This document shows, piece by piece, positions 17,930 through 20,633 of a stretch of DNA of 64,000 nucleotides. The translations under genes and the position numbers were made by a program. The stretch spans positions 1-64,000 of the forward strand of contig JBFXEW010000017.1 in NCBI GenBank assembly GCA_050179685.1, given 5' to 3'. Source of the DNA: Salinivirgaceae bacterium. Lineage in GTDB: Bacteria > Bacteroidota > Bacteroidia > Bacteroidales > SZUA-534. The notes beneath the pieces are model-generated. The model was not told the DNA's origin. It searched no databases and saw only the letters and a program-made list of their open reading frames with translations. Position 1 is the stretch's first letter, and every line of letters begins with the position of its first letter.

Positions 17930-18553
17930 TTAATAAACACCCAATGATCTCATTAAATCATCAATGGTCATTCGATTTTCATCAATCCATTTTTGAAAAT
18001 CTATCGGACTAATTAAAATATCCACTCCCCTAAACTCTTTTCTTAAATGAACTAAAGCATCTTTTGGTAATTCAAAATTTTCAAATATTTGAATCGATTT
18101 ATAAAAACTGTATTCATTGATTAAACCATTATAGACATATTTCATATCATCGCCTAAATTATCACAAAAAGAATGTATTAAAATTTTATCCTCATAGATA
18201 ATTTGTCTCTCCTTAGTATAACTAATTTTTGACGAATCTGGCACCAGATATATAAACAATCCTTTATCAAAGTCAATTTCAATTTCTCCGTTTTCCGGTT
18301 CATTTAAAATAAATTTCTGACGTGATGATTTAATGAATCGCTCTAGTTCCAATACTGTTTGTTCAAAAGATTCATAGCTGCTATCAATGCTTTCTAAAAA
18401 AACATCGACATAACTCTGATATTTATTAAAAACTTGTTTGCGAGCTTCAAATAAGTTGTCATGCTTAAAAATCTCTTCAATTTCAACAAGATTATCTAAA
18501 TCGGAATCATTTCTATAAATAGTTCCTTTTAATAGGTAGAGTGGTTTATTCAT
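17930..18553 (-). CDS. hypothetical protein (last gene of WYL-regulated operon)
   Basis: 207 aa; no recognisable motif. It starts 17 bp downstream of the 367-aa ORF. Confidence 0.4.
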   Translation of the reverse strand: MNKPLYLLKGTIYRNDSDLDNLVEIEEIFKHDNLFEARKQVFNKYQSYVDVFLESIDSSYESFEQTVLELERFIKSSRQKFILNEPENGEIEIDFDKGLFIYLVPDSSKISYTKERQIIYEDKILIHSFCDNLGDDMKYVYNGLINEYSFYKSIQIFENFELPKDALVHLRKEFRGVDILISPIDFQKWIDENRMTIDDLMRSLGVY

Positions 18554-18569
18554 GGTAAATCAGTTAAAA

Positions 18570-19673
18570 TTATTCGACACCCAAAAACCTTAATTCTTTG
18601 TTCTTTATAAAATTGGAAGCGATAATTTTATAATCTTCATCAACTTCATCAACGAGTTTTATTGATAAAAGTTGGTTGGGATTATACAATTCAATACAAA
18701 TAGCTTTTATAACAGTTTGGATTTTTTCATTTATTGTTTGTTGACTATGAGGTTTATCCATTATTGGGTTCAGGTAACTTGGAATAATTACAACATTCCA
18801 TAGAGCCGTAAAAAAATATGGATCAAAAGTTCGTGCCCAAACATGAGAAATAGTGAAATTTAAGAATTTACTATAATTTATTTGTCCATATTTAATTATT
18901 GCATCCACAACATTTTTATTCCCAGTTGAGTCAAACTCAACTTTTATATTTTCTCTTTCTTTACTATAAAAATCAAAATTTCTACTTTTTTGTACTGCAT
19001 CTTTTCTATTGGTTATAGCACTGGGTCTTTTATCCGTTGACAAGAAATACTTTTTCATTTTTTGAGAATATCTGACCGGAATTCTTTCTCCTATCGCGAT
19101 AGAATTATTAATAGCTTCAGCTTGTCTTTTAACTGCTTCAGGACTTATAAAAATTGAGTTGCGAATAAAAAAATCAATAAATTTTTCATCATCACTTCCA
19201 ATTAGTTGATACAGGCTATCAAATCCATTTAGTCTTTCTATATCATCTCTATCACCAGGATAAATGATGCCATTATTTTCTTTATCATTATTAGTTGTAG
19301 AAAATTGGTCTTCGTTTAAGTCATCATTTTCATCAATAGGTAAGTCATTGTAACTATCATTTTCACATTCCTGGGCAAACATTTCATCTTCAAATTCGAC
19401 ATATAGGTTTATAGCTTGTTTCAAAGTAGCCGAACCATTTTTAATATTACCATTAATTTTAACTTTATGGCGTGGGGGTTTGTTTTGTCGTTCATCTTCT
19501 ACTGAATAGTTTAATTCAGAAATTATTTTTTCACATCTATCTTTATCATAATTTATTTCTAAGTCGCCATAAGCTTGTTCAACTTTTCTACAATTCGAAA
19601 TTCTACTCGAAATAGTTCGCTCATTAAATTCACAAACTTCAATCATCCAGTTTTTAAATTCTAATAATTTCAT
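18570..19673 (-). CDS. hypothetical protein with acidic central region
   Basis: 367 aa; an acidic low-complexity stretch (DENDDLNEDQ) is present and no known catalytic motif was recognised. It is in an operon with the WYL regulator. Confidence 0.4.
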   Translation of the reverse strand: MKLLEFKNWMIEVCEFNERTISSRISNCRKVEQAYGDLEINYDKDRCEKIISELNYSVEDERQNKPPRHKVKINGNIKNGSATLKQAINLYVEFEDEMFAQECENDSYNDLPIDENDDLNEDQFSTTNNDKENNGIIYPGDRDDIERLNGFDSLYQLIGSDDEKFIDFFIRNSIFISPEAVKRQAEAINNSIAIGERIPVRYSQKMKKYFLSTDKRPSAITNRKDAVQKSRNFDFYSKERENIKVEFDSTGNKNVVDAIIKYGQINYSKFLNFTISHVWARTFDPYFFTALWNVVIIPSYLNPIMDKPHSQQTINEKIQTVIKAICIELYNPNQLLSIKLVDEVDEDYKIIASNFIKNKELRFLGVE

Positions 19674-19739
19674 AATATTTTATTTTGTTAAAATGTTATC
19701 TGTTAAAAAGCAAATACATCAAAATCACTTCTCAGTCTT

Positions 19740-20633
19740 TTAATAATACCTTTCTTTTCCTTTCAACCCATTTTGTGGAGTTATAACTTCCACTTCACCA
19801 TCAGCATGCGAACGAAGTTCTTGTTTTAAATCATAAGTAAAGTAGGCATTAATCTTAATAATCACGTAGTTGTTGCCTTTTTCAATTAGTTCTTGAGTAT
19901 AGTGTAAAGGATTAGCTTTATAGTAAGCATATTTTATGGGCAGCATCTTTATAATAATTTCTTCAGGAGTGCTATCAGGAAACCGGACTATTCCATAGCA
20001 ATAATTAAAATATTCTTTCAGGCTAAAATCCTTAGGAATAATGGATTTTTCCATGGTAATTAATAACTCACTTATTCTATCCAAACCAAATGTTTTAATA
20101 ATTTCTTCTTCCTGAGCTACTAAATACCAAAAACCTTTATGTTCCTTTAACCCTAGTGGTGATACAATTCGTTTTTTTTCTTCATTTTTTTCATACTGAT
20201 GATATATAAACTGTACCTTTTTATTTGATTTAATAGCACCCAACAAATCAAAAAAGTGCTCCAATCCATTGGCCTTCCGTTTACTAAATGAAATGCTTTC
20301 TGAAGGAACCATTATAAGTTGAGAAATCGCAGAAAATTGGATAGTCTCAAGCATTTTATAATTCTCATCTGAATTCTTATCCGAGTTCCTTAATTCGTAT
20401 TTTCGGCTTCGTGAATTACTAACAATAGGAATCTGTAAGATATTTCTAATGTTTGATACATCTTCTTTAAGCGTACGCTCCGATATACTCCTTGATGGAA
20501 TATCTATAACATCATTGAGTCTTTCAAGCCATCTATTCGTATTTAATAATAAATCTTTTAACGAAATAGAATCATGCTTCTTTACATTATCGATTATAAA
20601 TTTCCACCTTAAAAAGGTAACTGAATCTTTCAT
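19740..20633 (-). CDS. WYL-domain transcriptional regulator (BrxR/CapW-like: wHTH-WYL-WCX)
   Basis: 297 aa; an N-terminal HTH region is followed by a central WYL signature (EHKGFWYLVAQEEE). The length and domain order match the BrxR family. Confidence 0.55.
   Translation of the reverse strand: MKDSVTFLRWKFIIDNVKKHDSISLKDLLLNTNRWLERLNDVIDIPSRSISERTLKEDVSNIRNILQIPIVSNSRSRKYELRNSDKNSDENYKMLETIQFSAISQLIMVPSESISFSKRKANGLEHFFDLLGAIKSNKKVQFIYHQYEKNEEKKRIVSPLGLKEHKGFWYLVAQEEEIIKTFGLDRISELLITMEKSIIPKDFSLKEYFNYCYGIVRFPDSTPEEIIIKMLPIKYAYYKANPLHYTQELIEKGNNYVIIKINAYFTYDLKQELRSHADGEVEVITPQNGLKGKERYY

Follow-up and report, generated by a model that had tools for sequence, protein, structure and literature searches.

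A WYL-domain protein genomically linked to a two-domain, restriction-like protein: a candidate defence module at the edge of a low-GC island

The window analysed here, a 64,000-nucleotide (nt) stretch of contig JBFXEW010000017.1 from a Salinivirgaceae bacterium, contains three adjacent minus-strand genes: W, which encodes a WYL-domain protein, and two partners, B and C. A preliminary description of this locus had reported open reading frames (ORFs) of 297, 367 and 207 amino acids (aa), and all three are present as reported. They do share a strand, but it is the minus strand, and they converge on the type I restriction-modification (R-M) gene hsdR instead of following it on its own strand. The features of the locus are as follows.

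19740-20633, minus strand: W, 297 aa, WYL-domain transcription-factor-like protein, start at 20633
18570-19673, minus strand: B, 367 aa, two domains and an acidic linker
19377-19673, minus strand: B N-domain, residues 1-99, a helical bundle with the core-binding (SAM-like) fold of tyrosine recombinases
19230-19376, minus strand: B acidic disordered linker, residues 100-148, assigned from composition and a low predicted local distance difference test score (pLDDT)
18570-19229, minus strand: B C-domain, residues 149-367 plus stop, enzyme-like, uncharacterised
18753-18845, minus strand: core motif of the B C-domain, ISHVW-x13-WNVVIIPSYLNPIMDKP
17930-18553, minus strand: C, 207 aa, acidic alpha/beta protein, fold unassigned
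20869-21846, minus strand: X, 325 aa, upstream of W, possible fourth component
20634-20868: X-W intergenic region, 235 bp, likely to hold a candidate W promoter/operator site
14504-17896, plus strand: hsdR, type I R-M, convergent with W-B-C
22141-22160, plus strand: 3′-end fragment of a tRNA, exact 20-mer GTTCGAATCCCGGCAGCTCC, probable attachment-site remnant

The gaps are 66 bp between W and B, 16 bp between B and C, and 235 bp between X and W, with no terminator-like sites or hairpins in the W-B or B-C gaps; the stop codons of C and hsdR are 33 bp apart. W, B and C are real genes, because each has homologues in other genomes (aa identities of 33-70% for B, 41-51% for C and 21-47% for W). The reading preferred here, with a probability of about 0.5, is that W-B-C, probably with X as well, is an effector module of restriction-like character that arrived by horizontal transfer, is under WYL control and resides in a defence island.

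Linkage of W and B across Bacteroidota genomes

Close homologues of B are rare, forming 10 protein clusters (90% identity) within 5.8 billion sequences, and the homologues of C form 12 clusters. Ten independent Bacteroidota loci with usable flanks were compared, including the window and one locus (L011) that was counted with B′, a B protein consisting of the N-domain only. The gene orders are listed below.

Window: X, W, B, C
L005: X, 209-aa gene, 164-aa gene, 44-aa gene, B, C, W
L107 (1-9817): X (a fragment), 190-aa gene, B, C, W, then a convergent 75-aa ORF, type I hsdR (988 aa, with which the module is convergent) and AbiEii
L011: DUF6998, HTH_73, X, B′, C, W
L006/7/8: C, W, B
L001/12 (Saccharicrinis): LRR_5, 82-aa gene, W, B, 137-aa gene, DUF1232
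L002: X, LRR_5, 82-aa gene, W, B, 135-aa gene, DUF1232
L016 (Flavobacteriaceae): C, B, with W convergent
L013/14 (Chryseobacterium): SLFN_AlbA_2, B, with W convergent
L003/4/15 (Capnocytophaga): B, then convergent Metallophos, W and PDDEXK_4

A WYL gene adjoins B or lies one gene away in all ten loci, across B identities down to 33% and W identities down to 21%, while C is present in six loci and X in five, the homologues of X lying within the corresponding clusters of L002, L005, L011 and L107. In particular, the window, L001/2/12 and L006/7 have W upstream of B; L005, L011 and L107 have it at the end; and in L013/14, L016 and L003/15 it is convergent. The linkage is conserved, and not a WYL-first operon; the conserved unit is W plus B, with C and X as frequent accessories and no fixed trio. 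The preliminary picture of a regulator heading an operon is accurate for the window but does not extend to the loci where W is last or convergent, and the supposed trio is kept as a linkage of W with its partners, though not as a set of three. Moreover, the permuted orders (W-B-C, B-C-W, C-W-B, and C-B with W convergent) argue that selection has kept the genes linked, and against inheritance of a single ancestral operon. Such order-independent linkage departs from the paradigm of an upstream repressor.

The comparison also bears on whether there is a functional unit at all, as W, B and C could be unrelated cargo that became neighbours by chance. The varying order and orientation, the optional presence of C and X, and distant B relatives that lack W all point in that direction; however, a WYL gene stands beside B in every one of the ten independent loci, despite the divergence of both proteins and their varied flanks and orientations. 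WYL genes are rare within any one genome, and repeated chance adjacency of W and B is therefore implausible. Overall, this explanation is very improbable.

The module abuts the 3′ end of hsdR in two loci, the window and L107. A phage origin of the module was considered and rejected: no close homologue of B or C was found in IMG/VR or GenBank phages, and the distant subfamily of B relatives occurs on one viral contig only.

The two domains of B

The AlphaFold model of B, built from a 10-sequence alignment (pLDDT of 74.5), predicts two domains linked by a disordered stretch. This stretch (residues 100-148) is the acidic linker noticed in the preliminary description: it has 16 D/E compared to 3 K/R, as well as 8 N, its pLDDT is 28-42 and thus below 50, and its length varies among homologues. 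The same description had found no recognisable domains in the two downstream proteins, which is true of the family libraries. There, searches with B, C and X against Pfam, NCBIfam, PHROGs and PADLOC gave only sub-threshold matches to DUF6934 and PcfJ, with none at E <= 0.1 in PADLOC-DB v2.0.0, and single-sequence and profile searches of the PDB with B returned nothing. The N-domain of B is nonetheless recognisable by its structure and by the architectures in which it occurs.

A search of the full database with a profile of the N- and C-domains retrieved 1223 cluster representatives (50% identity) at E <= 1e-3; a broad alignment (A4) was too diverse for a genome scan. The C-domain is carried by 117 of the 150 best relatives. 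Elsewhere among the relatives, the N-domain precedes HNH_2 (P0100), PDDEXK_4 (P0061) and DUF559/Vsr-like (P0092 and P0109) domains, or is C-terminal to a DUF6998 domain (P0163); NucS_C and YhcG_C domains are also present among the 150, and relatives match the PADLOC REase_II, mREase_II (2e-55) and HNH models. Further, McrB-like AAA_5 ATPases of about 930 aa encoded on Sphingomonadales plasmids begin with the N-domain; they are followed by McrC (PF10117, 6e-67), the pairs lying at L105 4989-9175 and L106 6001-10134, and in L105 they are adjoined by a methyltransferase and a DEAD-box helicase. Because the N-domain is shared by nucleases of the HNH_2, PD-(D/E)XK and Vsr-like kinds and by McrB-like ATPases with McrC, it appears to be a restriction-type targeting module for nucleic acid. 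Solitary N-domain-HNH_2 genes were also observed, one of which adjoins cas9 and ParE.

This architecture resembles the Type IV enzymes, which are built from a specificity domain and a nuclease (PMC11090510). Like the modular Type IV and Type IIM enzymes and McrBC, B combines a targeting domain at its N-terminus with a linker and a catalytic-looking C-terminal domain. Unlike them, its C-domain lies outside the recognised nuclease families, and typical Type IV enzymes have neither a paired WYL gene nor a C-like protein.

The fold of the N-domain is that of the core-binding domain of tyrosine recombinases, at sequence identities of 7-16%. The identification of B as a tyrosine recombinase was rejected, as the R-K-H-R-H/W-Y catalytic domain that should follow is missing, there is no Phage_integrase match, and no structural match extends beyond the N-domain. 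The fold also bears on the possibility that the module serves a mobile element in integration, excision, transfer or surface-gene variation, with B binding the element's DNA through its core-binding-like domain and X acting as a PcfJ-like protein, as in conjugative plasmids. Several observations are consistent with such a function: the fold itself, the attachment-site remnant that the module adjoins, a weak PcfJ-like match of X (1e-3), insertion sequence elements and integrase fragments around L001 and L002, surface LRR_5 genes beside or fused with B relatives (the C-domain is fused to LRR_5 repeats in P0077 and P0111, and LRR_5 genes stand before W-B in L001 and L002), and a gene for a type IX secretion system cargo protein (Por_Secre_tail) after B in L006. 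However, B has no recombinase catalytic domain, the PcfJ match is under the Pfam cutoff, no integrase or conjugation genes adjoin the module in the window, and the partners of the N-domain elsewhere are restriction nucleases and McrBC, making a mobile-element function quite improbable. A kinship of X with LRR_5 proteins was also rejected, as a clustering artefact.

Across 62 diverse members, the C-domain keeps R201, D248, N252, H277, W279, P285, W292, N293 and D306 without exception. Neither sequence nor fold searches matched the domain to anything in Pfam, PADLOC or the PDB, and no PADLOC model matches more than 3 of the 150 relatives, despite the 117 that carry it. Its core motif, ISHVW-x13-WNVVIIPSYLNPIMDKP, matches position by position the HNH_2 motif ASHIKP-x13-NGILLSP-x5-LFD, which has the corresponding location in the N-domain-HNH_2 proteins. 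B has no match to Pfam HNH_2 (PF13391) at E <= 0.1, and the only three HNH_2 matches among the 150 relatives are proteins with HNH_2 in place of the C-domain (P0100, matched by Pfam, and P0136 and P0095, which are homologous to P0100). An hhalign comparison of the 117 C-domains with 55 HNH_2 domains produced a collinear pairing (ISHIWG with ASHIKP, WNIVLVP with NGILLSP, and LLDK with LFD), though its score of 12 is not significant (P = 0.35); an earlier run against 3 HNH_2 domains was likewise collinear and not significant. The secondary structure predicted around H277, N293 and D306 consists of two strands (271-274 and 295-298) and a helix (299-304), with a pLDDT of 52-63 in part.

From its invariant polar residues, the predicted strand-strand-helix and the collinearity with HNH_2, the C-domain appears enzyme-like. 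More specifically, it could be an HNH-like nuclease, a proposal based on motif collinearity, the predicted strand-strand-helix and the substitution of one domain for the other, and not on statistics.

The WYL protein, its partners and a proposed mechanism

W matches the Pfam WYL family (PF13280) at 3.5e-15 (56.2 bits, with a cutoff of 21.8) over residues 126-190 (bases 20064-20258) and two PADLOC WYL models at 3e-21 and 7e-18, the second of which spans residues 50-239; the original WYL assignment, with its GFWYLVAQ motif at residues 167-174, therefore survives profile search. The protein is laid out as a putative winged helix-turn-helix (wHTH) over residues ~1-100, the WYL domain, and a WCX-like C-terminal region to residue ~290. 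The WYL and WCX domains of DriD align to residues 130-287 (phmmer) or 130-291 (profile, 7e-11). Pfam WCX (PF25583) is matched by the aligned W orthologues of L013 and L016 and not, at E <= 0.1, by W itself, so that the WCX region is assigned to W through the DriD alignment and its orthologues. At the N-terminus, no Pfam HTH was detected; the alignments to the PADLOC WYL model PDLC01457 and to the CapW structure 7tb5 begin at residues 50 and 58, respectively, and a segment conserved in the W family (ISERTLKRD..I..I..I.I.YD...KGYYI) looks to us like a recognition helix and wing of the DeoR/HTH_11 type.

By its profile matches, W is a member of the WYL-WCX regulator superfamily, which includes BrxR, CapW, DriD and PafBC. 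A profile of W and its orthologues scores best against PafBC (2e-16, 63 bits) and DriD (7e-11, 45 bits), ahead of BrxR (2e-5, 27 bits) and CapW (9e-5, 25 bits). The term BrxR/CapW-like, which had been applied to W and which suits its size and its WYL-WCX build, is consequently valid at the superfamily level only; judged by profile scores, W is nearer to PafBC and DriD and not specifically of the BrxR/CapW clade.

Pairing of a WYL regulator with a neighbouring effector inside a defence island has precedents in BrxR with BREX and CapW with CBASS (PMC9122601 and PMC9122588), and WYL repressors of defence systems are known to sense single-stranded DNA (ssDNA) (PMC11662680 and PMC9122601). For CapW, DriD and PafBC, ssDNA is reported to be the signal (PMC11662680, PMC10853764 and PMC11804915). 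W shares several characteristics with the wHTH-WYL-WCX repressors BrxR (of BREX/BrxU islands) and CapW (of CBASS): a length of ~295 aa, a WYL domain followed by a WCX-like region, a place beside a putative effector in a defence island and, in the window, an upstream position from which it is likely co-transcribed. In contrast, its sequence is nearer to PafBC and DriD, its N-terminal HTH is not detected by Pfam, its position relative to its partner is not conserved, and the partners B, C and X are in no described defence system.

The ranking of these relatives raises the alternative that the module responds to DNA damage, with W as an ssDNA-activated activator of the DriD/PafBC type and B as a damage-induced repair or processing nuclease. 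PafBC and DriD are the solved-structure relatives nearest to W, aligned over the WYL and WCX domains; they control non-SOS damage regulons (PMC10853764 and PMC11804915), and two Chryseobacterium species have the locus in synteny, among genes with no obvious tie to defence. Housekeeping repair genes, though, are expected to be conserved within a lineage, whereas this module is patchy, low in GC content, mobile and, with close B homologues in only those 10 clusters, rare. Further, it is found in islands with R-M and abortive infection (Abi) genes and, unlike the chromosomal damage regulons of DriD and PafBC, is tied to one enzyme family, whose N-domain is common to restriction nucleases and McrB and not to repair enzymes. 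A role in the damage response is thus rather unlikely.

The 235-bp X-W region, the likely location of a promoter or operator for W, contains a 40-aa ORF on the minus strand (20705-20827); in L005, a 44-aa called gene lies between the 164-aa gene and B. A scan of the locus for sigma-70 promoters was uninformative, as shuffled sequences scored equally well, and an Rfam scan of 17-23 kb of the window gave sub-threshold matches only. Some upstream regions have sequences resembling TAnnTTTG, which we take to be the Bacteroidota -7 box, for example TATTTTTG about 35 nt before X.

C has no match in Pfam, NCBIfam, PHROGs, PADLOC or PDB sequences, in single-sequence and profile searches. Its isoelectric point (pI) of 4.7 is acidic, compared to a basic 8.8 for the C-domain of B, which makes a toxin-antitoxin (TA), addiction or abortive infection cassette conceivable: B would be a toxic enzyme that damages nucleic acids, C or other small partners such as the 82-aa family its acidic inhibitor, and W an autoregulator, with the cassette serving mainly to stabilise the island, or to kill infected cells instead of restricting incoming DNA. 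Besides the complementary charges, the close or overlapping placement of B or B′ and C (the 16-bp gap in the window and a 4-bp overlap in L011), an 82-aa family that accompanies both W-B and N-domain-HNH_2 genes, the location of the module at the extreme end of an integrated island, and a resemblance to AcrIIC3 that is weak and below any reliable threshold could all be taken as signs of such a cassette. Yet four of the ten W-B loci and all 80 loci of a distant B subfamily lack C, and nothing consistently takes its place; B does not always precede C; the AcrIIC3 similarity does not reach reliable thresholds; and no known TA family in Pfam, NCBIfam, PHROGs or PADLOC is matched. A cassette of this kind is accordingly fairly unlikely. 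The 82-aa family lies upstream of W-B in L001 (8775-9023) and L002 (8790-9038), and a member with 46% identity (L099 6794-7042) overlaps the end of the solitary N-domain-HNH_2 gene beside cas9; it may represent a further small partner protein for nucleases with the N-domain.

Under the preferred reading of a WYL-controlled effector module, the mechanism could operate in three parts. W would be a ligand-responsive transcription factor that, by analogy with CapW, BrxR, DriD and PafBC, senses ssDNA or infection damage and switches the module on. B would be the effector, whose N-domain would pick the nucleic-acid target and whose C-domain (R201, D248, N252, H277, N293 and D306) would do the chemistry, most plausibly DNA cleavage by a divergent HNH-like H-N-D centre. 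C, which is acidic, lies close to genes that carry the N-domain and is not needed in some lineages, may modulate B or hold it in check, perhaps as an inhibitor or adaptor.

Several observations weigh against a WYL-controlled defence module. First, 80 gut and rumen metagenome loci with a distant B subfamily (L018-L097) have no WYL gene, C or X nearby, indicating that the B enzyme is independent of W; the extension of the W linkage to the whole B family was rejected for this reason. In one case (L009/10), C is found with neither W nor B, adjoining a protein with a weak N-domain match (6e-5), and it is missing from four of the ten loci. Second, three lineages have W and B in convergent orientation, an arrangement not typical of BrxR/CapW operon control, and a repeat-based operator search of the X-W region found short AT-rich palindromes only, from which no operator is definable. 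Third, the N-domain of B is acidic (pI of 5.5), which is unusual in a DNA binder. Finally, several loci, such as Chryseobacterium L013/14, have no obvious defence island. The initial suggestion of a novel defence system accordingly stands as a candidate, drawn from context and architecture; what the searches add is that B, C and X are absent from PADLOC and lie outside described systems. In the distant subfamily, a typical arrangement is a DUF2779 gene (503 aa), B and an LRR_5 gene (269 aa), as in L053 (3095-6767).

A bolder and more tentative proposal, possible but doubtful, is that the C-domain of B represents a large unannotated family acting on nucleic acids, whose Bacteroidota branch has become the obligate partner of a WYL sensor, C and X in an undescribed anti-phage system, with the WYL protein possibly a co-evolving sensor subunit and not just an upstream repressor. 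If these readings were true, a new effector family would join the WYL-controlled immune modules, and a function would be assigned to a large unannotated family that is common in Bacteroidota, gut and rumen species included. Another possible outcome is a newly recognised targeting domain that descends from the core-binding fold of recombinases and that restriction systems have reused on HNH, PD-(D/E)XK and McrB scaffolds. The persistence of the W-B linkage despite scrambled gene order also makes this module a test case of whether WYL proteins are operon repressors only or dedicated sensor partners.

The island around the module

W-B-C is set in a horizontally acquired defence island, with the module at its edge, and the island proposed in the preliminary description is borne out by its low GC content, the tRNA fragment, the type I R-M genes, the AbiL genes and a cluster of E2/E1/JAB and metallo-beta-lactamase (MBL) genes. 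The GC content is 0.27-0.31 in the module and 0.42 in the right flank, with a step from 0.29 to 0.42 at the tRNA fragment. The fragment, a 20-mer comprising the T-loop and acceptor strand of a tRNA 3′ end, lies just beyond X, has a chance expectation of 0 matches and has no complete tRNA counterpart anywhere in the window; it is probably what is left of an attachment site and marks the right edge of an integrated, low-GC island that carries the module. To the left of the module are hsdM, hsdS, AbiLi/AbiLii, an MBL protein, an E2-E1-JAB fusion, a membrane protein and hsdR.

The type I R-M genes are split, with hsdM (3940-5547) and hsdS (5544-6716) separated from hsdR by about 7.8 kb of inserted defence-type genes. 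The hsdR product has an N-terminal DUF4145 domain and a C-terminal EcoEI_R_C domain. Within the insertion, a 292-aa protein with no family match (6762-7640) precedes the AbiLi/AbiLii pair (7841-9798; PADLOC 7e-94 and 2.5e-24), and the stretch from 10465 to 14414 encodes an MBL-fold protein (386 aa), an E2-E1(ThiF)-JAB fusion (755 aa) and a membrane protein (205 aa). This stretch has weak PADLOC matches to the candidate system PDC-M48 (A at 2.5e-5 and B at 6e-3) and looks like a ubiquitin-like conjugation defence module. Directly upstream of hsdM are genes for an SPFH/Band_7 protein (292-1392), an RtcB RNA ligase (1448-2617), a 226-aa protein without assignment and a DUF6438 protein (3454-3855), which may be part of the same island. 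On the opposite side, a terminator-like bidirectional hairpin with a 15-bp stem (22186-22219) follows the tRNA fragment.

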